From Dictyostelium discoideum (lineage: Eukaryota), in assembly GCA_000004695.1 (NCBI GenBank), contig CM000154.2:3008001-3072000 (forward strand): 64,000 bases of DNA, written 5' to 3'. The notes beneath the pieces were generated by a model. The model was not told the DNA's origin. It did not search any database and worked only from the letters and a program-made list of their open reading frames with translations. The translations under genes and the position numbers were made by a program. Shown here piece after piece: positions 5,032 through 49,843 of this stretch (its first letter is position 1; each line of letters begins with the position of its first letter).

Positions 5032-7952
5032 TTACAAAAGCCAACTAATGAATCTAAAAGGATGGTGATTTTCTTTTGAGTTTAATTTTTGTGACAATTT
5101 TAATTTTAAAAATTGTATATTATCTTGATTTAAATAACCAAAATCATATAAATAATTTACAAAATTAAAATTAGAGGTTTTATATGCTTGATTTAATAAT
5201 TCATCATCAATTTGAAAATAATAATGGTTTGGAAAATTGTTTAAAACTAATTCTCTTAAGGGAATATTAAACTTTCCAGATTTATTCAATTTTTCTAAAA
5301 TTAAATCCATTAACTCACTATGATTATTATTACCAAAAAAAAAATTTGAATATTTAATTATTGTATTTTCGCTAATGTTTATATTAAAAACTTTATACCA
5401 AAAGTTTTTTAAATTATCATCATTTTGAGTATTAATTATTTGATTATTAATAATTTGATCGATTAGTTGTGAATGATCTAAAATTAAATCTAAAACACTT
5501 TTTGAAGATATTTCTGAATATTTAAAATTTTTAGTTTTACTTAAATAGTCTATAAATGAAAGATATGAATATGATTTTACAAATACAGAAAATGTATGAG
5601 TATCCATTAAAAACAATAAAGTTTTAAAAATAAATGGTGAAATAGGAAAATAAATAAAGTAACCATCATCTTTGATTAATTCATTATAAACATCCCTTTT
5701 AAAATAATTATTTTTTGTATTATTATTATTATTATTATTATTAATATCTTCTTGAATTTCATCTGGTATTTTTAAAAGTTTCGAGAAAGAAACTAATGGA
5801 ACTGTTTTATCTTTTAATAGTTTTTGAATGTAATTTAATTCATTAAAAAATAAATCTACTCTTTTAATTTCTAAAAGGTATTCTAAATTATAATTAAAAG
5901 TTTTAAAAAGGTAATTGTTTTCATGAATTACCATTTTATCATTGAAATAAGGTAAATGTGATACTTCATGAATTAATCTTTCTAAAACTATTGAAAATGG
6001 AGGTGGTTGAGCAAATTCATTTAAACTATTACTATTATTACCAAAAATGAATTCCCAAGTAAAGATATTTGATTTTAAATATTTTCCAATATCATAACCA
6101 TTATGATCATATATCTTTTCAGAATTATAATTTGGTATATTTTTTGATTTTAAAAGTTTTCCAATGAATGGTAATTTTATTAAGTATTGAATAAATTCTT
6201 GTGATTTTAATCCTAAATAATAAAAACTATGAAATAGAGAATGTTCTAAACTTATTGAATTATCTAATATTAATCTACGAATTTTTTCAACATCTTTAAA
6301 TTTTACATCATCAATTTTAATTAAACATCTAAATAAACGGTTAATTAATTTTTCTAAAATCTGATTATCTTTTGATGTCGTTGTCGTTGTTGTTGTTGAT
6401 GTTATTTTAAAGGATTTTATTAATGTTTCAATACATTCAATAACATGTTTTGGATTTTGACAAGTTGTTGGAACATAAACTTGATAATAATCATTATCAT
6501 TCATTTCTCCAGTTTCATAATAATAATCTTCATATATATATGAAAGAATTGAATTATTTGTAAATAATGAATCTAAATCTAATTTTGATAATGATGGTAA
6601 TAAAATCATTTGAAAATCATTTGAAAAACCATTCACTAGTTTAGTCATTAAAAGTGGTGATAATTCGTCAAATTTCTTTGAATATTGTTGAAATTGATCA
6701 TTAAATTTAATTTTAATTTTATCACTATTAAATTTAAAATCAAATAAAAACTTTTCAAATGTTTTTTCATTAAATGCTTTATAACCACTGTCATTTAAAT
6801 AATTTATTAATTTCTCTTGATTTTCAATTGTTGTGGTTTCATTTAAATTATTAAATGAATCTTTAAATTCTCTTTTATAGATTTTATAATAGCTATAATT
6901 TTCATCCGAATTTTGATTACTACTAAAAATCATATCATTTTCAAGTTTAAAACCCAATACATTTTCATCAATGAATTTTAATGTTTCAATATCATAATTA
7001 TTAATTGCATTGATATAAGTTTGATGATATAATAAACATTTGTAGAAATAACTATCACCATTTAAACTCTTTGGATAATATAGTATTGATGATTTGTCTG
7101 AAAATGCATCAATTGCATATTGTATTAATTCTAAACTTTCAAATTGAAATAATTCTCTAGTTGTAAAACTTCTTAATTTCTCTTTTAATAGGAATCCATT
7201 ACAATTCTCTAATATCCAATCAAACTTTTCTTTATTATTAATATAGATTTTTGAATAATTAAAACCCCAATTAGATAAATCAATTAAAACTTGATTCCAA
7301 CATTTTGGATATAAACTAATTGGTATTGAATTGATTTTACTATTTGGTGAAATTGAATTATAAACTCTTTCATATTCTTCACTTGTTTTTGATGATAATA
7401 AAAGTTGTTTAATTTCTTGATCAACATCTATATTTCTAAATGCAAGACATTCACTTTGTTTTGTATAGTATTCAATAAATTCATATGTAGATTCAAGTTC
7501 TCTTTTAATATTATTTTTTTTATTATCTAATGATATACTTTCAATTATTAGTTTTACTGTTAAGAAATTAAATGATGCTTTTTTATCTTTATCTGATGTT
7601 ACTGTTTTTGAGATTACCCATTTAAAAGTTTTTGGTTCAAAATTTAAAAAACTAAATTGAATTACAATCTCTAAATATTCAATATCTAAATCTTCAATTG
7701 GTTCAAAATATTTTAAAAGATAATTTTTATAATTATTTTTATCTTTTTTTACTAATATCTTAAAAACTTCTTTTATTTTATTTTCACTCTTATCATTTTT
7801 AATAATTTCTTTAATTTCATCATGATTTGAATTGTTGAAATAATTTAAATTTAATAATTGATTTATTATTTTTGAATCTTTTATAAATAGAAATTTATTT
7901 ATATCTGGAATTTTTTTTATTGATTGAAAGTTATTAAAATCATTATTATTAT

Positions 7953-7983
<31 letters not shown>

Positions 7984-8634
7984 ATTATAAAATTTATTTA
8001 ATAATAATCCAATAATTAATTCTTTATGATTATCATTATTATTATTACGAGTAAATGCTAAACTAATTGATCTATTCTTTAATTCTTCTGTTATTATTAA
8101 ATTATGTGAATTTACTAAAATATCTACCATTTGATAAGAACAATTTAAAATTACCCACTCTAAAACTGATGGGAAAATTTTAATTGAAAATGGTTCATTT
8201 AATAAAATTTCTACAGCATCATAATTTTCAACTCTTTTTTTATTATTTAAATCTTCAATTTCTAATGCTATTGATAATAAATCGAATTGAAGTAATTCTA
8301 ATTTCTTTTTTTCATATAATAAATTAAATATTTCTTTTATTTCATCTTCATTATTATTATTATTTAATCTGAATAATTTTTGAAATGAACTTTTTGATAG
8401 ATCAATATATTCATTTGCTTTTAATTTACATATTAATAGTTGGTATTGTTTCATTTTTAACATCAATTCCATTGATGTTAAATGTTTGAATTTAATTTGA
8501 CTACTTCTATTAATACCAACAACTTCAACCCTTTCTAATATTAATTTAAGTAAATATACATTATGTATAACTTTCCAAAATATTGGTTCATTATCGCTAT
8601 TAAATTTTTTAACTTTATTACAATTGTTTATCAT
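5032..8634 (-). CDS. Large hypothetical protein (1200 aa), tandem paralogue of 595..3873
   Basis: Uninterrupted 3.6 kb ORF with poly-Asn and poly-Thr tracts. Shares N-terminal and C-terminal conserved blocks with the 1092-aa neighbour (see that feature). Same strand, about 1.1 kb apart. Confidence 0.7.
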
Positions 8635-8816
8635 TTTCTTTAATGTTAAATGAAAAAAAAAAAAAAAAAAAAAAAAAAATTATAGTGTAATAAAAAAAAA
8701 AAAAAATATCTTTTGATCTTAAAAATTCAAAAAATAAAGAAAAAAATCAGAAAATTTTCAAAAGATATTTTTTTTTATTTTTTTATTTTTTTTATTTTTT
8801 TTTTTTTTCAAATTAA

Positions 8817-10382
8817 TTATTTTTTTCCAATATAATAATTATTATAGTCATTTAATATAATATTTCTTGAATTTGAATTTGAAAAAGGACCAATCATTCT
8901 GTAAAAAGAAGGATGAAATAATAGATTCCAATTTATATTATAAAATAAAGAATCATTTTCTTTTAATTTGTTAAAATCTGGAAGTGCACCAATTTCTTTA
9001 GCAAGATCATCACAAAAATAAACTCTATTTGGTAAAGCAAATTGTGGTCTACTATGTTTTTCATTTCTCTCTCTAATAATTTCAACATTTTTTATTTCTT
9101 CGAGCATTATTTCTTTAGTTGGTAATTTTGAAATACCAGCGAATCCATAAATTGCAAAACGTGCTTGACATTCCATTTCAGAAAAAACTGGTGTTCTATA
9201 CATTCCAATGAATGCCATATTATCTAAATGTGGTGATAGTGTATGTTTATATAAAAGTATTGGTAAATGAGGTACTGATAAATTCATTGAAATCTTTTTT
9301 TTAATTTCATTGTCAAAAAACGGTAAATCAATATCATAACCAACGCAAGTAATTATATCATCAACATTATCAATTATTTCAATATTTCCATTTGAATCTT
9401 TAAAAATCATTTCATTACCATTACAATCAATTAAAGTATTTTCAACCACCTTTATTTTATCAAGTTCTAAACATTTAAAAAAGGTGTCTGAAAATATATA
9501 ATAATGAGATTGATTTTCAGGTTTTTTATATTTAAATAAATTATTTTCTCTTTGATTCTCTGACGCTAAATTGAAATAAGAATCCGTCATTTTATTGATT
9601 TCTTCAATTGTTTTTTTACTTTCATAAATCATTGATCTTTTTTGGAAACAATAATCTACATGTGGTATATTTTCTTTATCTATTGGGTATCTTCTTTTAA
9701 ATATATAAACTGAATCTCTACAATTTAAATAAACCATTTTTGCTTTTTCAGCAACTGCTGATGAAATTTCAATTCCACTTGAAAATCCACCCACAACTAA
9801 AACTCTTTTATCAATAAAGGCATTTGGATCTTTAAATTCATCAGATGACCAAACTTTACCATTAAATTTATTTATTAATTTATCTTTGATATCAATATCC
9901 CTTTTTTTACTAAACATTCCAGTACAAATTATTACATAATCATAAATTTCTTCATGAATTTCTGATTTTTCTTTAATTTTATTTGATTTTATTAACCATT
10001 GGTTTTGGTCATTTTCACAAACTTCTGATATACTAATAACGTTTGTATTTAATCTTGTTTTTTCTAAAACTTTGAAATGTTTTGAATAATCATAAAGATA
10101 TTTAAACATTTGCTGTTTAGTTGGATGAAATGGTTTTTCATTTTCTTCTTCCCATATAAAATCTGAATAACTCATTGAAACATAAGAAATATGAGTTTTC
10201 ATATTATCCCATGCTTTACCACTTTCACCAATTGACCAAACTCCACCAATATTATCATTCTTTTCAAATAATACTACATCAAATCCACATTCTAATGCTG
10301 TTTTTGCACTAACAATACCACTTGGTCCAGCACCAATAACTGCAACTTTTTTATTTCTTTTTATTTCAATATTTTCATTCAT
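8817..10382 (-). CDS. Flavin-containing monooxygenase (FMO)-like FAD/NADPH oxidoreductase (521 aa)
   Basis: N-terminal 'KVAVIGAGPSGIVSA' FAD-binding GxGxxG, 'NIGGVW' FMO-type motif and a second dinucleotide fold 'VLVVGGFSSGIEIS'. The overall length and order are typical of FMO/Baeyer-Villiger-type monooxygenases. Confidence 0.7.
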   Translation of the reverse strand: MNENIEIKRNKKVAVIGAGPSGIVSAKTALECGFDVVLFEKNDNIGGVWSIGESGKAWDNMKTHISYVSMSYSDFIWEEENEKPFHPTKQQMFKYLYDYSKHFKVLEKTRLNTNVISISEVCENDQNQWLIKSNKIKEKSEIHEEIYDYVIICTGMFSKKRDIDIKDKLINKFNGKVWSSDEFKDPNAFIDKRVLVVGGFSSGIEISSAVAEKAKMVYLNCRDSVYIFKRRYPIDKENIPHVDYCFQKRSMIYESKKTIEEINKMTDSYFNLASENQRENNLFKYKKPENQSHYYIFSDTFFKCLELDKIKVVENTLIDCNGNEMIFKDSNGNIEIIDNVDDIITCVGYDIDLPFFDNEIKKKISMNLSVPHLPILLYKHTLSPHLDNMAFIGMYRTPVFSEMECQARFAIYGFAGISKLPTKEIMLEEIKNVEIIRERNEKHSRPQFALPNRVYFCDDLAKEIGALPDFNKLKENDSLFYNINWNLLFHPSFYRMIGPFSNSNSRNIILNDYNNYYIGKK

Positions 10383-23174: not shown

Positions 23175-23273
23175 GGTAAAGGGGTTGCAGGTTTTTTTTT
23201 TTTTTTTACAATGATTTTTTTATTTTTTTTTTTACAACAATTTTATTTTTTTTTTTTTACAATGATTTATTAT

Positions 23274-23310
<37 letters not shown>

Positions 23311-23856
23311 GGAAATATAATTTTTAAAAATAAATAAAAAAATAATAATGGGTTTATTAATTTACAACAAAATTGGGCGGAATTGGGTTAAAAAAAATTA
23401 TTTCAAAAAAAAAAAAAAAAAAAAATTTTAAAAAATTCAAATTTCAAAAAAAAAATCAAATTTCCAAAAAAAATTAATTTAAATTAAATTAAATTAAAAA
23501 AACCGGTTGTTCACCTGCTTTTTAAAAAAAAAAAAGGGGTTTTTTCCCCAATTTTCAAAGGGGGGGGGGAAAAAAAAGGCCAATTTTTTTTTTAAAAAAA
23601 TTAATTAATTTAATTTTTTTTTTTTTCAAAAAAAAGGGGGGTTTATTTTTTTTTTAAATAAAATTTTTTTTTTTTTTTTTTAAAGGGCCCAAAAAATTTT
23701 TTTTTTTTTTGGCCCCCAAGGGGAAAAATTTTTTTTTTAAGGGGTTTTTGGTTTAACCCGGGGGAGGCCCCCTTTTTTTAATTTTAAATTTTAAAAAAAA
23801 AAAAATTTTTTTTGAAAAAAAAAAAAAAAAAAAAAAGGTTTTTTTTTTTTCCCCCA

Positions 23857-23895
<39 letters not shown>

Positions 23896-24157
23896 ATTTT
23901 AAAAAAAATTATATTAATCCTTATTAATAATATATTATTATTATTATTTTAAAATTTCTTTTTTTTTTTCTTCAAATAAAATTATAATTAATAAATAAAT
24001 AAAACAAACAAATAAATAAAATAAAATAAAATAAAATAAAATAAAATAAAATAAAATAAAATAAAATAATATAAAATAAATAAAATAAATTATAAAATAA
24101 ATTAAATAAAATAAAATTAAATAAAATAAACACATAATAAAAAAAAAAAAAAAAATT

Positions 24158-26532: not shown

Positions 26533-26657
26533 TCAAAATGTAAAATTTTTAAAAATAAACACAAAATTTTTTTTTTTTTTTTTGTTTTTGTTTCTGTTTA
26601 AAAATTTTGCTTTTTTTTATTTTTTATTAATTATCTTAAAATAATATATAAGGTTAA

Positions 26658-27131
26658 ATGGCAACAAGTGAAGATGATAAAGATAACAGTTATAAAAAAA
26701 TTAAATGTACAATTCATCCAAATAAAAAAATAAAACTTTTATGTTCAGATTGCAATTTAATGCCATGTTGTATTGAATGTATTTTAGATGGTGAACATAT
26801 TTCACATAAATATCGAAAGTTAGAATCAGTAGATTTTTCATTAATTAATAGTAAATTTAAAAATGATATATGTCCAAAAATAAAAGAAAAAATTGAAAAT
26901 AATAAAATAATATTAAAAGAATCTTATAATAAATTCCATGAAATTCAATCACAATTTTATAATAATAATAATTTAATAAAAAATGAAATTGATAAAATTC
27001 GAGAAACCATTTCAAATATTGAAACTGATTTTCAAAATGAATTAAAAGAAACCTTTGATAATAATAAAATAATAAATACAAAAATAACATCATCAATAAA
27101 TCAAGATAATGAATTACTCACAAACATTGAA

Positions 27132-27195
<64 letters not shown>

Positions 27196-27431
27196 GTTCA
27201 AATTGTATTGATGCAAATGAAACCATTAAACGATATCAACAATTATTAATATTAATAAATAATAATAAAAAAAATTCAAATAAATTAAAAGAATATAATA
27301 ATCAAGTGATTACATTTGAAAATTCAACACTTGATGAAATTAAAAATTATTTAAAATTAATATATTCTTTTAAAAATAATGATAATAATGATAATAAAAG
27401 TAATAATGAATTTGATAATGATGGAGATTAA
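26658..27431 (+). CDS. B-box zinc-finger / coiled-coil protein without FNIP repeats (257 aa), paralogue of the downstream B-box/FNIP genes
   Basis: 'KCTIHPNKKIKLLCSDCNLMPCCIECILDGEHISHKYRKLES' is a B-box-type Cys/His pattern near-identical to 27690.. and 31503... It is followed by a helical 'ILKESYNKFHEIQSQFYNNNN..' region. It ends before any FNIP unit. Confidence 0.6.
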
Positions 27432-27689
27432 TATATGTATATATATGTTAATTATTTTCATTGTGTTTTCCTCAATTCAAAAATAAATAAAAGTAAAAAT
27501 CAGATTGTAACAAAGACACCATAAATAGTAATTTTTTATTTTATTTTTTGTTTTTTTTTATTTTTTTTATTTTTCTTTTTTTTTTTTTATTTCCATGCAT
27601 TTTGGGTCACTTTTTTTATTTTTACACACATTTCGCTTTTTTTTTAATTTCTCTTTTTTTTTTTTTTTTTAGTATTAAGTTTATTACCA

Positions 27690-28449
27690 ATGACAACAAG
27701 TAATAATAATAATAATAACAATAATAATAATAAAAATAAAATTCATAAAAATATTAAATGTACAATACATTCAAATAAAAAAATAAAACTTTTATGTTTA
27801 GATTGTAATTTAATGCCATGTTGTATTGACTGTATTGCAGATGGTGAACATAATACACATAAATATAGAAAGTTAGAATCAAAAGATCTTTCATTAATTG
27901 ATAATAATTTAAAAAATAATGTATATCCAAAAATAAAAGAAACAATTGAAAATAATAAAATAATATTAAAAGAATCAAATAAAAAATTCAATGAAATTCA
28001 ATCACAATTTTATAATAATAATAATTTTATAAAAAATGAAATTAATAAAATTCAAAATATAATTTCAAATTTTAAAAGTGATATTGAAAAACAATCAAAA
28101 GAAATATATAATAATAATATAATAATAAATACAACAATAACATCATCAATAAAACAAGATAATCAAATACTCACAAACATTGAAAATAATAATAATGAAT
28201 CCAACCCAAATGATATAAATGAAATAATTAAACAATTTCAACAATCATTAATAATATTAAATAACAACAATTCAAATAAATTAAAAGAATACGATTGTAA
28301 AATGGTTCAATTCGATCATTCAACAATTGATCTTATTAAAAATTATTTAAAATTAATTTATTCTATAAAAGATAATTGTAATAATCAATTTTATTACGAT
28401 GAAGATTTTCAATTTATATGTGAACCAGAAGGTAATAATGAGCCGGTCG

Positions 28450-28535
<86 letters not shown>

Positions 28536-30059
28536 CTGCAACAACAACAACAACAACCAACACCAATTTCACCAACAACAACAACAACAACAGCAACAAC
28601 AACAACAACAACAGCAACAGCAACTACAACATCAACATCACCAAATAATAAAAAAAGAAAGAATCCAGATTCTGATGATTATGATGGTAGTGATGGTTAT
28701 GATGGTCATGATTCTGATGATGGTCATGATTCTGATGATGACTCTGATGATGATGATAATAATAATGATAAAAATGATGACAATAATAATAATAATAATA
28801 AAAATAAAAATGGACCGAATAAAAAATATAGACCACGTGTATTAAGTAAAATAACAAGTAATGTTAAAACGTTGCATATACATTGTTTAAGACAAGAATT
28901 AGAGATTGGTTGTATACCTAATACTATTGAAACCATCTTTTTAAAAGGTGGATACAATCAAAGATTACTCACTGGTATAATACCAGAAGGTGTTAAAAAG
29001 TTACAATTTGGTAGAATGAATCAAGAATTAATTATTGGATCAATTCCTAAATCAGTGACGTGTGTAGCTTTAAAAGGTGGATTCAGTCAAAAATTAACAC
29101 CAGGTTTAATACCAGAAACTGTACTAGACTTTAAAATTGGTGATACCAATCAAGTTTTAATGGTTGGATCAATTCCAAATAGTGTAAAGAGACTCTATCT
29201 ATTCCGTAAATTCAACCGAAAATTAAGACCTGGTATAATTCCAAAAGGTGTTACAGAGTTGTATTTAGGTAATAAGAATGATGTATTAAAGGTTGGTTCA
29301 ATTCCAAATACTGTAAAGACTATCTATTTAGAGAAGGATTTCAACCAAAAGTTAATACCTGGCATATTACCAAACGATGGTTTTAAAGAACTACATATTG
29401 GTCCCATAGAATTAAAAGTATTAGAGATTGGTTCAATTCCTAAAACTGTAAAGAGGGTCTATTTGAATAGTAAATATCCACAAAAATTTAAACCAGGTAT
29501 ATTACCAGAAGGTGTTCAAGAATTACATTTAAGCGGAAAGAATCAACCCTTAATGATTGGTTCCATTCCAAAAACTCTAAAGAGTATTTATTTGGAAAAA
29601 GGATTCAAACAAGCATTACCACCTGGTATAATAACTGAAGGTGTAGAAAACCTATATTTACGTTCTATAGGTAAGGTTCAAATTGGTTCAATTCCTAATA
29701 CTGTAACAAGTGTCCATATATTGAAAGAGTTTAATCAAACATTAAAACCTGGTGTTTTACCAATAAGCGTTAAACATTTACATCTATATGATTTCAAATC
29801 AACATTAACTATTCATTCAATTCCTAATACTGTGGATAATGTATATTTAAATGATGGATTCAGTCAAAAAATAATGCCTGGTATATTACCAATAGGTGTT
29901 AAATCTTTACATTTAGGTGATATAAAAAAAGAAATAACCATCGAATCAATCCCCTTCACTTTAGAGACTATAAATATATATAGAGGTTTTAAACATCCAA
30001 TTGAACCATTCATTTCAAAAAATATAAAAATTGTCAATCACTTAAAGAGACTTAACTAA
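27690..30059 (+). CDS. B-box zinc finger + poly-Gln/poly-Thr linker + FNIP-repeat protein (789 aa)
   Basis: N-terminal B-box 'KCTIHSNKKIKLLCLDCNLMPCCIDCIADGEHNTHKYRKLES'. A (CAA)n/(ACA)n low-complexity linker follows. The C-terminal half carries at least 18 tandem units of about 22 aa of the form 'GSIPNTVKxLYLxxxFNQKLxPGxIPxGV'. This FNIP repeat is characteristic of Dictyostelid proteins and giant-virus proteins. Confidence 0.75.
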
Positions 30060-30085
30060 AATATTATTTTTAAACTATTTTTTTT

Positions 30086-30261
30086 ATTTTATACTACAAC
30101 TACAACATCAATACCAACATCACCAAATAATAAAAAGAGAAAGAATCCAGATTCTGACGATTATGATGGTCATGATTCTGATCATGATCATGATCAGGAT
30201 TATGATAGTCATGATTCTGATCATGATCACGATTCTGATGATGATTCTGATGATGATGATG

Positions 30262-30357
<96 letters not shown>

Positions 30358-31090
30358 GTGAAACCATCTTTTTAAAAGGTGGATACAATAAAAGATTACT
30401 GATACCAGAGGGTGCTAAAAAGTTACAATTTAATAGAATGAGTTGGGAATTAATTATTGGATCAATTCCTAAATCAGTGACGTGTGTAGCTTTAAAAGGT
30501 GGATTCAGTCAAAAATTAACACCAGGTCTAATTCCAGAAACTGTATTAGACTTTAAAATTGGTGATACCAATCAAGTTTTAATGGTTGGATCAATTCCAA
30601 ATAGTGTAAAGAGACTCTATCTATTCCGTAAATTCAACCGAAAATTAAGACCTGGTATAATTCCAAAAGGTGTTACAGAGTTGTATTTAGGTAATAAGAA
30701 TGATGTATTAAAGGTTGGTTCAATTCCAAATACTGTAAATACTATCTATTTAAAGGGGAATTTCAATCAAAAGTTAATACCTGGCATATTACCAAACGAT
30801 GGTTTCAAAGAACTACATATTGGTCCCATAGAATTAAAAGTATTAGAGATTGGTTCAATTCCTAAAACTGTAAAGAGTGTATTTTAATAGTAGAAATATA
30901 CAAAAAATTAAGCCAGGTATATTACCAATAGGTGTTAAATCATTACATTTAGGTGACATAAAACAAGAAATACCCATCGAATCAATCCCCTTCACTTTAG
31001 AGACTATAAATATATATATATAGGTTTTAAACATCCAATTGAACCATTCATTTCAAAAAATATAAAAATAGTTAATCACTTAAAGAGACT
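30086..31090 (+). pseudogene. Truncated tandem duplicate of the 3' half of the 27690..30059 gene (FNIP-repeat region plus 3' flank)
   Basis: 30086-30260 repeats 28615-28760 (the 'TTTSTSPNNKKRKNPDSDDYDG..' region). 30360-30890 is near-identical to 28925-29470 (FNIP units) with a small internal deletion. 30900-31090 repeats 29890-30090, including the 3' UTR, after skipping about 400 bp. There is no B-box or N-terminus, and the frame is broken. Confidence 0.65.
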
Positions 31091-31129
31091 TAACTAAAAT
31101 ATTATTTATAAACTATTTTTTTTATTTCT

Positions 31130-31185
<56 letters not shown>

Positions 31186-31378
31186 GATACATCTATTTAA
31201 TTAAGTAAAAAATATGTTTTTGTTTTAAAAAAAAATAAAAAAAATAAAAAGTAATGTTTTGAAAATATCTCGACATCATTTTGTTTTTCTACTTTTTGGC
31301 ACAAAACAAGTAAAATTTTTTTTTTTATCAGTTTTTTTTTCTTTATTTTTTAAGTCTTCCATTTTATTTTATTTTATT

Positions 31379-31414
<36 letters not shown>

Positions 31415-31502
31415 ATATACTGGATATTGATCCAACAAAATTTTTTAAAAATATTTATTTTTTTTTTTTTTTTTTTTTTGATAAACTATAATTCCAAAAA
31501 CA

Positions 31503-33122
31503 ATGATATCCAACAATAATGCAATAAATAAAATTGATAATAATAAAAAGTGTACACTTCACCCAAACAAAGATATAATATTCTTTTGTTTAGATTGTAA
31601 ATTAATGCCATGTTGTACTATATGTATATCAAGTAAAGGTGAACATCATGCTCATAGAATTGATCCATTAGAATCTAGTTCAAATATTCTTTCATTAATG
31701 AATAGTTTTAAAGATGATGTACATCAAAAAGTAATAGAAAGAATTGAAACTAATGAAATAATTTTAAAACAATCAAGTGATAAATATAATGAAATTCAAT
31801 CACAATTTGATAATAATAATAATTCATTAAAAAAAGAAATTAAAAAAATTCATGATATCATTTCAATCATTGAATTGGATATTAAAAAACAATTAGAAAC
31901 AGCCTTTGGAAATAATACATTAATAAATTCAATGATAAATTCTTCAATCAATAATGATAATCAAATACTTTCAACAATAATTAATAATGAAAATGAAAAT
32001 GAAAATGAAAATGAAAATATTAAAACCATTGAAAAATTAAATGAAATTTTAAAATTAAATGATCAACAAATTAATGATAATGGAGATGATGATGATTTTT
32101 TTATTGATAGAGATATTATTAAAATTATTAAACAATATCAACAATCATTGATAGTATTAAATAAAAATAATAATATCGATAACTCAAATAAATTAAATGG
32201 ATATGATAATCAAATAATTCATTTCCATAAGATAATTGAAGATATTAAAAATAATTTAAAATCAATTTATTCTTTTAATGATAGTAGATTTAAAATTGAA
32301 ATCGATGAAAATAATAATAAATTTTTTAATTGTAAGCTTTTACATTATACAGTTGTTTTTTTTTTTATAAAAATTATTTTCACACATTATTCTAATTACC
32401 AAAATATAGGGAACAATTTAAAGTTTTATACTTATATAGAGGGTGATTTTATTAATTTTAAGACTAACGAAGGTATAGCATTCAAAGATAATTGTAATAT
32501 TTTATCAAAATTAAAAAATCAATTACCCTCAAATGTAATGCTATTGGATGGATTCAATCAAAAATTAAAACCAGGTATAATACCAAATGGTATTAAATGG
32601 TTGTATTTAGGTGATATTAAACAAGAATTAATGCCTGGTTCAATTCCTAATACTGTAACTCTTGTCAATTTGTTGGATGGATTCAATCAAAAATTAACAC
32701 CAGATATATTACCAGATAGTGTTAAATACTTGTATTTACATGATTTAAAACAAGAATTAATAATGGGATCAATTCCTGAAACTGTAACTCATCTCTATTT
32801 AAAAGATGGATTCAATCAAAAATTAAAACCAGGTATATTACCAGGTGGTATCAAATGGTTGCATATTGGTGATTTAAAACAAGAATTAATAATTGGCTCA
32901 ATTCCAAACACCGTAAAGAATATCACTTTATTGGATGGATTCAATCAAAAATTAACACCAGGTATATTACCAGATGGTATTGATTCTTTGTATTTAGATG
33001 ATATAAAGGAAGAATTAATGATTGGTTCAATACCTAATTCTGTAAAGAGAGTGAAAGTTTCCAAAAGTTTTAATCTACAAATTGAACCCTATGTTTCAAA
33101 AAATGTTATAATTGTTAAATAA
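31503..33122 (+). CDS. B-box zinc finger + FNIP-repeat protein (about 513 aa if a 78-nt in-frame intron 32332..32409 is removed)
   Basis: B-box 'KCTLHPNKDIIFFCLDCKLMPCCTICISSKGEHHAHRIDPLES'. C-terminal FNIP units 'LLDGFNQKLKPGIIPNGIKWLYLGDIKQELMPGSIPNTV..'. A candidate intron GTAAGC...TATAG (78 nt, AT-rich, in-frame) has a translation 'KLLHYTVVFFFIKIIFTHYSNYQNIG' that is non-protein-like. Confidence 0.65.
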   Translation: MISNNNAINKIDNNKKCTLHPNKDIIFFCLDCKLMPCCTICISSKGEHHAHRIDPLESSSNILSLMNSFKDDVHQKVIERIETNEIILKQSSDKYNEIQSQFDNNNNSLKKEIKKIHDIISIIELDIKKQLETAFGNNTLINSMINSSINNDNQILSTIINNENENENENENIKTIEKLNEILKLNDQQINDNGDDDDFFIDRDIIKIIKQYQQSLIVLNKNNNIDNSNKLNGYDNQIIHFHKIIEDIKNNLKSIYSFNDSRFKIEIDENNNKFFNCKLLHYTVVFFFIKIIFTHYSNYQNIGNNLKFYTYIEGDFINFKTNEGIAFKDNCNILSKLKNQLPSNVMLLDGFNQKLKPGIIPNGIKWLYLGDIKQELMPGSIPNTVTLVNLLDGFNQKLTPDILPDSVKYLYLHDLKQELIMGSIPETVTHLYLKDGFNQKLKPGILPGGIKWLHIGDLKQELIIGSIPNTVKNITLLDGFNQKLTPGILPDGIDSLYLDDIKEELMIGSIPNSVKRVKVSKSFNLQIEPYVSKNVIIVK

Positions 33123-34144
33123 AATTTAGAAAAATAATATTTAATTTAATTCCAAGAAAAAAAAAAATAAAAAATAAAAAAGTAATTTTTAGTACTATAT
33201 CATTTTGCGTCTAATTTTTGATATAAAACAATTAAATTAATTAAAAAAAAAACACTGTTGCATGGTTCGTTTTTTTTAGTTTTTTTATTTTAATTTTTAG
33301 ATATTTTTATTTTATTTTATTTTATTTTATTTTGTTAATTTTTTATTTTATTTTTATTTTTCTTACAATTTTTGATGATTTCTAGAAATAAAAAAAATAA
33401 AAAACAAAATGAAAAATAGTATAAAAAATGAAATAACCTCAACAAAACATATAATTTTAATAAAATCTAAATTTAAATGAAACAATTTAAAGAGGAAAAT
33501 GAAGAAGATAATGAAAAATGAATTTGAATCAAATTGTAAATTAATTGAAGGTATAATTTTTTAAAATGGTCCAACAAGTGGAAATCCATCAACAATAAAA
33601 AATTTCATTAGACTTAATAAAATAACTCAAAATGGAAGTGGTTATGAAGCTACGCATCGTCATTATGAATCTGCCAAAAAAGTTATTATTTATTATTGGA
33701 TAATCGAATTTAATTGTTTGATTTAAAAATAAAGGATTATTATTATTGTTATTATTTTTTAAAATTAATAATGATTGTTGATATTGTTTAATTAGTTTAG
33801 TTGTATCATTGTTATGGTGGTGATGGTGATTTTGATTATTTATGATTATATTTTGAAGTATTTCATTATCATGAATGATTGAAGATACTATTTATATATT
33901 CAATCATGGATTTCCTTGATAATTGTGAAATATGTTCATCAAATAAACTATCCAATATTAAATATAGTCTTATATTATTTGAAGAAAGAAAAGAAGGAGG
34001 AGGAGGAACAAAAGGAGGAGGAGGAGGGGAAGAAGGAGAGGTTGTACCATATCAATCAGTATTAAATAATAATAATAATAATATTCAAGAAAATAATGAA
34101 GAATTTATTGAAAGTAAATATTTTATTATTTTATTTTTATATAT

Positions 34145-34178
<34 letters not shown>

Positions 34179-34214
34179 TCTAACTATAATTTAATTCTAT
34201 TAGGTTTTTAATAT

Positions 34215-34816
34215 ATTCTGATAATGATAATTTTGGTATAACACAAAATATAGCATTTAAGGAGAATTGTAAAGATTTATCAAAAGTTGGTAAAAAAATA
34301 AGAGTGACTCTTTTGGATGGATTCAATGAGAAATTAACTCCAACAACGTTACCAGAAGGTATTAAATCATTACATTTATTTGATATTAAACAAGAATTAG
34401 AGATTGGTTCAATTCCTAATACTGTGGTGAGTCTATCTTTGGAGGATGGATTTAACCAAATTTTAAAACCTGGTGTAATTCCAGAAAGTGTGAAAGAGTT
34501 GTATATACATGATATAAAGCAAGATTTAATAATTGGATCAATTCCTAATACAGTGAGGAATGTATATTTTCAAGATGGTTTCAATCAAATATTAACACCT
34601 GGTATAGTGCCTAAAGGTGGTGTTAAATATTTATATTTTTACAATATAAAACAAAAATTAATTATTGTTTCAATACCTGAGACTATAACAACTGTATTTA
34701 TTTTAAATGGAACCAATCAAAATTTAACACCAGGTATAATACCAGAAGGTGTTAAATTGGTTTATTTAATTGATACAAAACTCAAAACTTCACAAAATAA
34801 AAAGATAAAAATATAA
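34215..34816 (+). CDS. FNIP-repeat C-terminal gene fragment; N-terminal exons not identified (possible pseudogene or multi-exon gene)
   Basis: 'TLLDGFNEKLTPTTLPEGIKSLHLFDIKQELEIGSIPNTVVSLSLEDGFNQILKPGVIPESVKELY...' are FNIP units. The upstream '..NIAFKENCKDLSKVGKKIRV' is homologous to the pre-repeat segment of the 31503.. gene. No B-box exon with an intact frame was found in 33400-34200. Confidence 0.4.
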
Positions 34817-35517
34817 ACTCTTTCTTTTTTTTTTTTTTTCAAAAAAAATTTTATTTTTGTATATATAAAAAAAAAAAAAAAAAAAATTTTAATGTATTTT
34901 AAAACTAAAAAAAATATTTATTTATTTATTTTTTTTATTTATTTTTTTAATGATTGGTAACGGTCTTTTACCTGGTTATTTTGTTTTTCCTTACTAATTT
35001 TATTTTTTTTTTTTTTTTTTTTTTATTTTTTTTTTTTTTTTCATTTGGCCTTCGATTACTTAAAGTAAATGCATTGAATTTCAAAATACTGTTTAGCTTT
35101 TTTTAGGTTGAAAAAAAAAAAAATAAAAAAAATAAAAAAAAAGAAAAAGAAAAAGAAAAATAAAATAATAAAAAAAATAAAAAAATTGAATTTTAAATAA
35201 AGTAATTAAAAACGAACATTCACACCGATAACTGTTCGTTATTTATTCACTAAATGACTCCATAACTTTTTTTTTTTTAATTTTTTTCATTTTTTTTATA
35301 TTTTTATTTTTATTTTTTTTTTATTTTTTTTTTTTTTTTTATTTTTTAAAATTTTTTTTTTTATTTTTTTTTTTTCTAATCAACATCATCACCAACCACA
35401 TACAACACGTTCATTTATTTTTTTTTTATTTTTATTTTAACCACACCAATTATTAAATAAAATTTATATATAAAATATATTTATATATAAATTAATAAAA
35501 AAAAAAAAGAAATAAAG

Positions 35518-48781: not shown

Positions 48782-49175
48782 CTAAGGACGAGATTGATGT
48801 TGATGGTTTTTCATTTTATGATAATTATTTTCAATTGTATTGTTATTTTTATTATTCAAATTAATTCTTAAAATACGAATACTATTAATAATGGAATGAT
48901 TTAATTTTAAAGCATTTCGAATATCATTTATTAAATTTTCATTAAAAATTATGGTTTGTTTATTGTATTCTTTTAATTGTTTGGAATTATCTATATGAAC
49001 TTGGTTATTTAAAATTATTAATGATTCTTGATATTTTTTAATTATTTCAATTATACCTGTATCTACTTTAAAATCTTCACCCCCATCATAACATTCTTGA
49101 TTTTTATTGTTTATAATAAAATGATTTAACTTTTCAATGAATTTTTTATCATTATCCTCATATTTACTTTTATTT

Positions 49176-49270
<95 letters not shown>

Positions 49271-49843
49271 AAAATGTGATATTGCTTCATCAATTAATGA
49301 AGTAGTATGATTTTTTAATGTATCTGTTGTTTTAAGAGTATCGGTATTATTTTCTTGGTCATTAAAAATTGATAAGAGTTTTTCATTATCATGATTGATT
49401 GATGAATCCAAAGTTTGATTAATTAGTGTATTTGAATCGAATATGGTTTCTAGTTGTTTTTCAATATCATTTTCAATACATTGAACTGAAATATGAATTT
49501 TTTTCATTTCAGATTTTAACAAACTATTGTTTTTTTCATATTGAATTTTGATTTCATTGAATTTATCATTTGATTCTTGCAATATTTTTTCATTATTTTC
49601 AATCCTTTCAATTACTTTTGGAAATACATCATCTTTAAAACTATTAACAAATGAAAGAATATTTTTTATTGACTCTATTGGATCAGTTTTATGAGCATGG
49701 TGTTCTCCTTTACTTGATATACATATAATACAACATGGAATATATTTGCATTGTAAACATAATACTTTTATATTTTTACTTGGATGTAAAGCACACTTTT
49801 TTTTGTTATTAACTGGATTTTTATTATCAATGTTTGATGCCAT
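48782..49843 (-). CDS. B-box zinc-finger / coiled-coil protein without FNIP repeats (353 aa), inverted paralogue of the 26.6-33 kb cluster genes
   Basis: 'KCALHPSKNIKVLCLQCKYIPCCIICISSKGEHHAHKTDPIES...FKDDVFPKVIERIENNEKILQESNDKFNEIKIQ' is near-colinear with the N-terminal 200 aa of the 31503.. protein. A long poly-Asn tract follows. There are no FNIP units. Confidence 0.6.

Follow-up and report, generated by a model that had tools for sequence, protein, structure and literature searches.

The 64,000-nt stretch of DNA analysed here (the window) belongs to chromosome 5 of Dictyostelium discoideum AX4, as shown by a PEX11 homologue that is identical to EAL62629.1 and has DDB_G0289629 next to it. 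The window is very AT-rich (GC content of ~15–33%) and carries, between 26.6 and 34.9 kb, a plus-strand cluster of B-box zinc-finger/FNIP-repeat genes. The cluster comprises a B-box-only ORF of 257 aa (26658..27431), followed by an intact gene, hereafter referred to as X (27690..30059). The latter is a single ORF encoding a 789-aa protein with a B-box zinc finger, a coiled-coil, a polyQ/Thr/Asp linker and 10 FNIP matches (Pfam zf-B_box, 1.7e-06; FNIP, 7.3e-70 in 10 stretches). Downstream of X resides the fragment which is the subject of this study (~30093..31131) and which we consider a remnant of another gene, Y. It is followed by a second full B-box/FNIP gene of 539 aa (31503..33122) and by a FNIP-only tail (~34.15–34.85 kb). 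Besides the fragment, a cluster member at ~34 kb also appears truncated in the laboratory lineage.

FNIP (IP22/FGxxFN) repeats (PF05725) constitute a leucine-rich-repeat class very abundant in Dictyostelium and giant viruses. The family is reported to be of very large size in Dictyostelium in a paper which retrieved 557 sequences and also presents structures (PMC9525666). An exact-sequence look-up of the 789-, 257-, 149- and 539-aa ORFs of the cluster in a sequence collection returned no match, and the 149-aa ORF, which is contained in the fragment, had no record as a called gene. A homology search with the FNIP domain yielded nothing above 56% identity in an index from which X and Y as encoded in the new assemblies are apparently missing, while matches to the full protein X were dominated by low-complexity words. 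In turn, the orthologous loci in other assemblies were reached via neighbour anchors, i.e., PEX11 and the upstream ankyrin gene. A literature search retrieved no account of this B-box/FNIP locus.

Similarity between the fragment and gene X

The fragment and X were compared by BLASTN and global alignment. The stop codon of X (TAA, 30057–30059) is followed by 33 bp of 3' UTR, after which the sequence of the X linker (~28615) resumes at position 30093, as described in the initial annotation of this region. From there, the fragment follows X through its linker, FNIP units and C-terminus into the 3' UTR, up to position 31131. It stays in frame with the gene, a single TAA at 30057 being placed between the 789 codons of X and 276 further open codons. 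The replay of FNIP units at more than 95% identity, also reported at that stage, was reproduced in our alignments: the whole FNIP block (30358–30892 vs. X 28927–29472) is 95.7% identical and its core (30442–30876 vs. X 29020–29454; 435 bp, with 420 matches and 10 mismatches) reaches 97.7%. What had been estimated as a jump of about 400 bp corresponds to 384 bp of X absent from the fragment. Here, the alignment passes from 29493 directly to 29877, with the crossover located in a CC(A/T)GGTATATTACCA motif common to two FNIP units. Beyond this point follow the C-terminal tail (30901–31097 vs. X 29865–30059; 94.9%) and the 3' UTR (31098–31128 vs. X 30060–30090; 93.5%). Overall, 34 substitutions were counted in 766 columns, which gives 95.6% identity with the low-complexity linker excluded. 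This is, as had been claimed, well above the values for the older paralogues, since the remaining FNIP units and paralogues of the window reach 61–78% identity.

The identity is unevenly distributed along the fragment, with a 193-bp perfect run (P = 0.0015, permutation) set against flanks diverged by ~9%. The differences between the fragment and X are spread over codon positions 1:2:3 as 11:7:14, a near-even ratio of the kind expected without constraint, which may be taken as indirect support for the lack of function. The 149-aa ORF of the fragment (30438..30887) is recognized by the Pfam FNIP profile (PF05725; 3.4e-27, 94.8 bits against a cut-off of 21, in 3 stretches), and at this gathering score the fragment belongs to the FNIP repeat family. 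The B-box + FNIP subfamily was delimited by its architecture, i.e., an N-terminal zf-B_box (PF00643), a coiled coil, a low-complexity linker and a FNIP array within one ORF, as found in X, Y, the 539-aa gene and gene G of related assemblies (see below). The fragment does not display this architecture: its sequence sets in within the linker, and a B-box, a start codon and an upstream region are all absent.

Gene Y in other lineages

For comparison, one genome per lineage was used. The assemblies compared with the window belong to a series in which AX2-214 and wild isolates are described as having been assembled de novo from Nanopore and Illumina data (Holland et al., 2025; PMC12745789). Among them, GCA_054883475.1 (L002/L005), labelled D. 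discoideum, is probably AX2-214, judging from its label and assembly statistics. AX4 and GCA_054883475.1 have the same gene order: the ankyrin gene, the 257-aa B-box gene, X (789 aa), the fragment and the 539-aa gene. In GCA_054859385.1 (L013/L004), the ankyrin gene is followed by a 309-aa B-box gene, X (898 aa), a gene Y of 748 aa and a 539-type gene. An X–Y pair is likewise present in GCA_054859355.1 (L006), with Y encoding 787 aa and preceding a 536-aa gene. Both of these genomes are labelled D. discoideum and show ~91% identity to the window in syntenic DNA. In D. cf. discoideum, represented by two assemblies (L014/L012 and L015), the position of X–Y is taken by one gene, G, of 814 or 809 aa. 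The locus of D. citrinum (L016) gave no alignment upstream of ~35.1 kb, and thus no outgroup information.

In L013 and L006, Y is a complete, stop-free gene with zf-B_box and FNIP domains and its own promoter region; X of these lineages is also stop-free and retains both domains. Collinear orthologues of X extend over 13591–16287 in L013 (898 aa) and 13834–16278 in L014 (814 aa). The dN/dS of X against its orthologues equals 0.28–0.34 vs. 0.6–0.8 in the comparisons of Y, which indicates that Y is evolving faster.

Positions 27371–28200 and 28747–30090 of the window are collinear with X in L013 (28747–30090 corresponding to L013 14972–16318 at 95.6% identity). Further downstream, 30093–30952 matches L013 17470–18364 and 30838–31127 matches L013 18635–18924, both in Y, whereas 31257–33127 aligns with the next gene at L013 18960–20852. 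As the flanking blocks are collinear, L013 16319–17469 (~1.15 kb) is simply missing from the window. This segment holds the X–Y intergenic DNA, the Y upstream region with the start codon, the B-box/coiled-coil half and polyQ. At the junction, TTTTATTTTAT on the left is joined to ACTACAACTACAACATC on the right (the sequence across the junction is also given as TTTTATTTTAT joined to ACTACAACTAC), with microhomology of at most 1–3 bp.

The relationship of the fragment to Y was examined in an alignment of six sequences, i.e., AX4 gene X, the fragment, R_X, R_Y, W_Y and G as the outgroup, with 902 ungapped columns. Here, R_Y and W_Y denote Y of two other D. discoideum lineages, and R_X the orthologue of AX4 X. 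At 29 of the 902 sites the fragment agrees with R_Y and W_Y against AX4 X and R_X, and at 25 of these 29 the outgroup G has the X state. Only 5 of the 902 sites unite the two AX4 copies against R_X, R_Y and W_Y together; private states were counted at 18 sites in the fragment and at 10 in the AX4 gene. The fragment and Y also have in common a 9-bp deletion (parent 28969–28977) and a 5-bp gap. In neighbor-joining trees (1000 bootstraps), the clade of fragment and Y received 100% support from each of three column sets, i.e., the FNIP flanks (318 columns), the linker (154 columns) and the entire set of columns; the low-complexity linker is aligned with less certainty than the FNIP part, yet the FNIP flanks alone agree. 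In the flanks, the fragment is diverged by 9.1% from AX4 X and by 7.9–8.2% from Y, and in the linker by 15.6% from AX4 X. Since dozens of states as well as indels are common to the fragment and Y of the other lineages, we regard it as the orthologue of the Y 3' half and not as a recent copy of X.

This bears directly on the reading put forward in the initial annotation, according to which part of X was recently duplicated in tandem by unequal crossover or replication slippage. Here, this was considered as an event within the AX4 lineage that copied X from its linker through the 3' UTR, the copy having acquired a few lesions since. The arrangement does resemble a-X-X-b, with the junction between the UTR end and the linker, and the core, at 97.7% identity, pairs the fragment with AX4 X in its own tree (63% bootstrap). 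Such a copy should, however, be sister to X along its full length with uniform low divergence, while the values obtained rise from 2.3% (core) through 9.1% (flanks) to 15.6% (linker). The 29 sites, the 9-bp deletion and the 5-bp gap common with Y would then require dozens of parallel changes, the clade of fragment and Y has 100% bootstrap outside the core, and relatives possess a complete gene at exactly this position. We therefore consider a fresh duplication of X very unlikely. The accompanying claim of a truncated pseudogene of the 3' half of the FNIP gene holds in part: the fragment is a truncated B-box/FNIP copy in tandem with an intact gene, to which it is much closer than other paralogues are, but its source is Y and not X.

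The identity of more than 95% between the fragment and X is misleading because X and Y appear to have been homogenised over a core of ~430 bp in each of the two lineages. In the core partition used for the trees (29026–29455; 430 bp), the fragment is 2.3% diverged from AX4 X and 5.1–5.6% from Y, and its pairing with AX4 X is weak (63% bootstrap). Considered alone, the core thus speaks against a relic of Y, as the fragment is closest there to AX4 X, which fits a recent copy, and gene conversion is needed to reconcile it with the flanks. The ratio of orthology to Y-only sites is 1:8 in the core vs. 28:15 in the flanks (Fisher P = 0.0068). A similar pattern was seen in the other lineage, where R_X and R_Y are 3.5% diverged in the core and 11.3% in the flanks. 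Four of the five sites classified as "concerted" fall in the core (29165, 29206, 29254 and 29390). At 29165 and 29390 both AX4 copies have AX4-specific derived states; at 29206 and 29254, and perhaps also at 28707, X and Y of the other lineage have derived states in common. From the singleton counts, ~0.07 coincident parallel changes are expected, and two AX4-specific shared derived sites were observed, although these are few sites and ancestral polymorphism is possible. The clustering of identity in the 193-bp run (P = 0.0015), together with the switch in topology between core and flanks, is the signature of interlocus gene conversion. This mosaic pattern suggests recurrent conversion between X and Y in the core in both lineages, and part of it, as judged from a small number of sites, may well have taken place after the lineages split.

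Parts and lesions of the fragment

The left edge of the deletion junction is formed by a 33-bp stub of the X 3' flank (30060..30092), which ends in TTTTATTTTAT and matches L013 16288–16318. Beyond 16318, L013 runs into the X–Y intergenic region, which is absent from the window. The right edge of the ~1.15-kb deletion is a remnant of the Thr/Asp-rich linker of Y (30093..30263), collinear with L013 from 17470 and containing 11 Y-specific substitutions (28619–28719) common to R_Y and W_Y. Next to it lies an expanded (AAT)31 microsatellite (30264..30356; 31 units by regex), which takes the place of the linker end and of the beginning of FNIP unit 1, so that X 28812–28918 has no counterpart in the fragment. 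The AAT-rich replacement itself and the 5-bp gap near 28812–28840 are common to the fragment and Y; only the fragment shows the additional loss and the expansion.

The FNIP units of the Y remnant, delimited by alignments, occupy 30358..30912 and include the Y-type 9-bp deletion (parent 28969–28977). Within them is located the homogenised core (30442..30876; parent 29020–29454), 97.7% identical to X and a probable X/Y gene-conversion tract. A fragment-private 2-bp deletion near 30877–30880 causes a frameshift into TAA at 30885–30887, and the translation of the fragment in the parental frame stops at …KTVKSVF, followed by two stop symbols. The junction of the internal 384-bp deletion, which removed three 43-codon FNIP double units, is placed at 30913..30927 and lies in the motif CCAGGTATATTACCA. 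This 15-bp motif is found at parent position 29493 and, as CCTGG…, at 29877. The 384-bp deletion is also private to the fragment, as it was not found in X, Y or G of any relative compared.

The last FNIP unit and the C-terminal tail of the Y remnant (30928..31097; relic stop at 31095–31097) carry Y-specific states common to R_Y and W_Y (29906A, 29921C, 29928C, 29937C and 29983T). A fragment-private AT insertion in the (AT)n run at 31010–31021 produces a second frameshift with an in-frame TAG at 31021–31023. The tail is followed by a stub of the Y 3' UTR (31098..31131; 93.5% identical to 30060–30090), in which 30070A is common with Y. After an A50 run (31134–31183), the sequence continues with DNA collinear with the downstream flank of Y in relatives, and the motif AAATATCTC(G/A)ACATCAT…TTTTGTTTTTC, found 3' of the fragment, is also found 3' of Y in L013 and L006. 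By its syntenic homology and its lesions (loss of the 5' half, two frameshifts, premature TAA and TAG, and disappearance of the first FNIP unit), the fragment is a non-processed, deletion-truncated pseudogene. Judged from these sequence features, the remnant is presumably non-functional.

History and significance of the locus

Taken together, we conclude with high confidence that the fragment is what is left of the 3' part of a formerly complete tandem paralogue, Y, whose front part was lost by a deletion of ~1.15 kb in the AX4/AX2 lineage. Its history could be outlined as follows. A whole-gene tandem duplication would have generated the X–Y pair before AX4/AX2 split from the lineage of GCA_054859385.1 and GCA_054859355.1, and Y would subsequently have diverged faster than X. 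In the AX4/AX2 lineage, one deletion of ~1.15 kb, from 33 bp past the X stop to the Thr-rich linker of Y, would have taken away the X–Y intergenic region, the Y promoter and start codon, the B-box/coiled-coil half and polyQ. Devoid of promoter and start codon, the remnant would then have decayed through the 2-bp deletion leading to TAA, the slippage insertion in the (AT)n run, the (AAT)31 expansion, by which the first FNIP unit was erased, and the in-register loss of 384 bp from the array between the 15-bp direct repeats. In turn, gene conversion between X and Y may have kept the ~430-bp FNIP core near-identical in both lineages. We infer both the direction of change (deletion and not rebuilding) and the order in time of conversion and deletion, the former because of parsimony and because the normal X 3' flank is missing in AX4.

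The opposite polarity would make the partial copy ancestral, with the full-length Y of relatives rebuilt later by the gain of a second promoter and 5' half. No outgroup bearing Y was found to polarise the change, as the locus contains just one gene in either assembly of D. cf. discoideum, and the 5' halves of Y and X in L013 (93.5% identical) are somewhat more alike than their 3' halves (91.4%). Yet, for rebuilding, promoter, B-box and polyQ would have had to be inserted precisely, in an extra step, so as to restore one continuous ORF of 748–787 aa, compared to which a single deletion is far simpler. In L013, the similarity between the X and Y units starts 5' of the start codon (13513 vs. 16572), as a whole-gene duplication predicts. 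Furthermore, the AX4 junction falls 33 bp past the X stop and the usual downstream flank of X is gone, which denotes sequence lost in AX4. An ancestral partial copy seems to us highly improbable on these grounds.

The region is rich in repeats and has low-complexity flanks, including (AAT)31, A50 and polyT, and an assembly artefact, in which reads of one gene or of a paralogue located elsewhere were placed in tandem, had been named as another option. Still, GCA_054883475.1 reproduces window positions 26600–31500 with 0 substitutions and three homopolymer-length differences; the A run after the fragment differs by 13 nt between the two assemblies. Both flanks also follow the X–Y–539 order of relatives, and the fragment has 34 substitutions and several indels of its own and, therefore, is not a collapsed or duplicated pile of reads. 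The chance of a mis-join is accordingly negligible.

Hardly any credence can be given to a 5'-truncated processed pseudogene (retrocopy) of X or Y mRNA, to which the 5' truncation and the 50-nt A run 36 bp past the relic stop might point. Processed pseudogenes are characterized by a non-syntenic insertion, a poly(A) tail and target-site duplications, a combination which the fragment does not exhibit: both in its position and on either side, it is collinear with genomic Y, the DNA past the A run is the downstream flank of Y, and no target-site duplication was seen at its junctions. The A50 run is unremarkable, because the window contains 33 A/T runs of at least 25 nt, 8 of them of at least 40 nt. 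Finally, in three other lineages the B-box-only ORF (26658..27431) is likewise found at this position as a conserved gene in its own right, which speaks against this ORF and the fragment being halves of one gene split by the insertion of a full gene, or products of one complex template-switching event.

The fragment, interpreted as the relic of Y, is of a well-known kind, i.e., a deletion-truncated non-processed pseudogene in a birth-and-death tandem family with local gene conversion. Like the FNIP proteins of PMC9525666, X and the fragment are built of PF05725 repeats, but the fragment is a non-coding relic, and that paper does not deal with the B-box + coiled-coil + FNIP architecture, the term "B-box" being absent from it. 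Partial fragments of tgrB/tgrC genes have been described in variable Dictyostelium clusters (PMC12745789). The two cases are alike in that a tandem paralogue was disabled by deletion and then decayed, intactness depends on the lineage, and fragmented neighbours occur in a variable cluster. The family studied here (B-box + FNIP) is a different one, however, its cluster is small and simple in contrast to the hypervariable, unalignable tgrBC region, and the comparison is one of sequence, not of allorecognition or function. The locus also resembles cases of concerted evolution between a gene and a pseudogene in its mosaic structure, with a homogenised tract within older flanks, lineage-specific states in both paralogues and a neighbour closer than the orthologue. 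Here, though, the tract is short (~430 bp) and its putative post-split part comprises few sites per lineage.

It is conceivable, though unlikely, that the remnant is not inert and serves as a conversion reservoir of FNIP variants for X. Given that X retains a mere 33 bp of its 3' flank and that the remnant lies in frame with it, X mRNAs could also include the remnant in an extended 3' UTR, or it could occasionally be translated by readthrough of the stop codon. For a large, fast-evolving family of repeat proteins none of this is unexpected. As regards method, the locus calls for caution, as high identity to an adjacent fragment was taken for a fresh duplication where there was really an older paralogue, half lost and partly converted. 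Within one genome, a fresh copy and a converted older paralogue are inseparable, so that synteny with diverged strains decided. The annotation is affected as well: in GCA_054883475.1, X and the pseudogene are erroneously fused into one protein model of 1061 aa. For the biology of the family, the finding constitutes a strain difference, in that the AX4/AX2 laboratory lineage is without the B-box/FNIP gene Y, which is intact in two diverged isolates, and this is relevant to studies of the family carried out in laboratory strains.

Reading phase of the 789-aa gene and its pseudogene fragment

The public annotation of GCA_054883475.1 joins the intact 789-aa B-box/FNIP gene (27690..30059, plus strand) and the pseudogene fragment directly behind it (30093..31131) in a single 1061-aa model, at positions 6208-9541 of the corresponding locus, L002 (window 27690..31023). 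This fusion arose because the fragment shares the reading phase of the gene: over 30057..30887, only the TAA at 30057 stands between the 789 codons and 276 more open codons. The shared phase is probably due to chance: one phase in three would match, and 11 codons of UTR need to be free of stops. Since a real stop codon and a frameshift must be skipped, the model needs predicted introns (~148 nt), and it ends at a TAG arising from the AT insertion of the fragment. We consider the 1061-aa fused model to be probably an annotation artefact.

Directly 3' of the 3' UTR of the fragment lies an A50 homopolymer (31134..31183); the other assembly has 13 nt fewer in this run, and in the relatives the matching interval is rich in T and shorter by about 95 bp. 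Elsewhere, the window and L002 are near-identical, and 96 of their 114 mismatches fall within 23250..24000, an intergenic patch of ~750 bp that lies upstream of the ankyrin gene. This patch may represent low-complexity sequence that is hypervariable or was misaligned, or the two assemblies may differ locally.

Related reading frames outside the 789-aa gene

Upstream, a B-box-only ORF of 257 aa (26658..27431, plus strand) shares 86-90% DNA identity with the 5' half of the 789-aa gene. We rejected it as debris of the event behind the fragment, since stand-alone counterparts occupy the equivalent position in L013 (309 aa; D. discoideum), L014 (299 aa) and L015 (283 aa; both D. cf. discoideum), and they have the same N- and C-termini as the ORF in the window. 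The dN/dS value is ~1.0 against the 789-aa gene and 0.7-0.8 among the orthologues. The ORF looks like an old partial copy whose reading frame has been kept open by weak constraint.

A further family member, a 353-aa ORF, is found on the minus strand at 48782..49843. At the protein level, its N-terminal half and the B-box/coiled-coil half of the 789-aa gene share 42% identity; with the C-half as query, no FNIP match was detected at this position.

Decayed and possibly broken members across lineages

A second decayed B-box/FNIP member of the cluster (about 33400..34850, plus strand) retains only its FNIP tail, open at about 34150-34850. The syntenic gene of L006, a diverged D. discoideum locus (736-aa model, reverse-complement 6044-8326), has a B-box N-terminus, which the window lacks, and window 33684-33893 runs in the opposite orientation to its counterparts in L004, L006 and L015.

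The 539-aa paralogue (31503..33122) is intact in AX4/AX2 and also in L006 (536 aa), whereas its counterpart in L013/L004 (L013 19222-20847) is annotated as two pieces, of 123 aa with the B-box and of 354 aa. Breakage of cluster members may therefore depend on lineage, different members being broken in different lineages.
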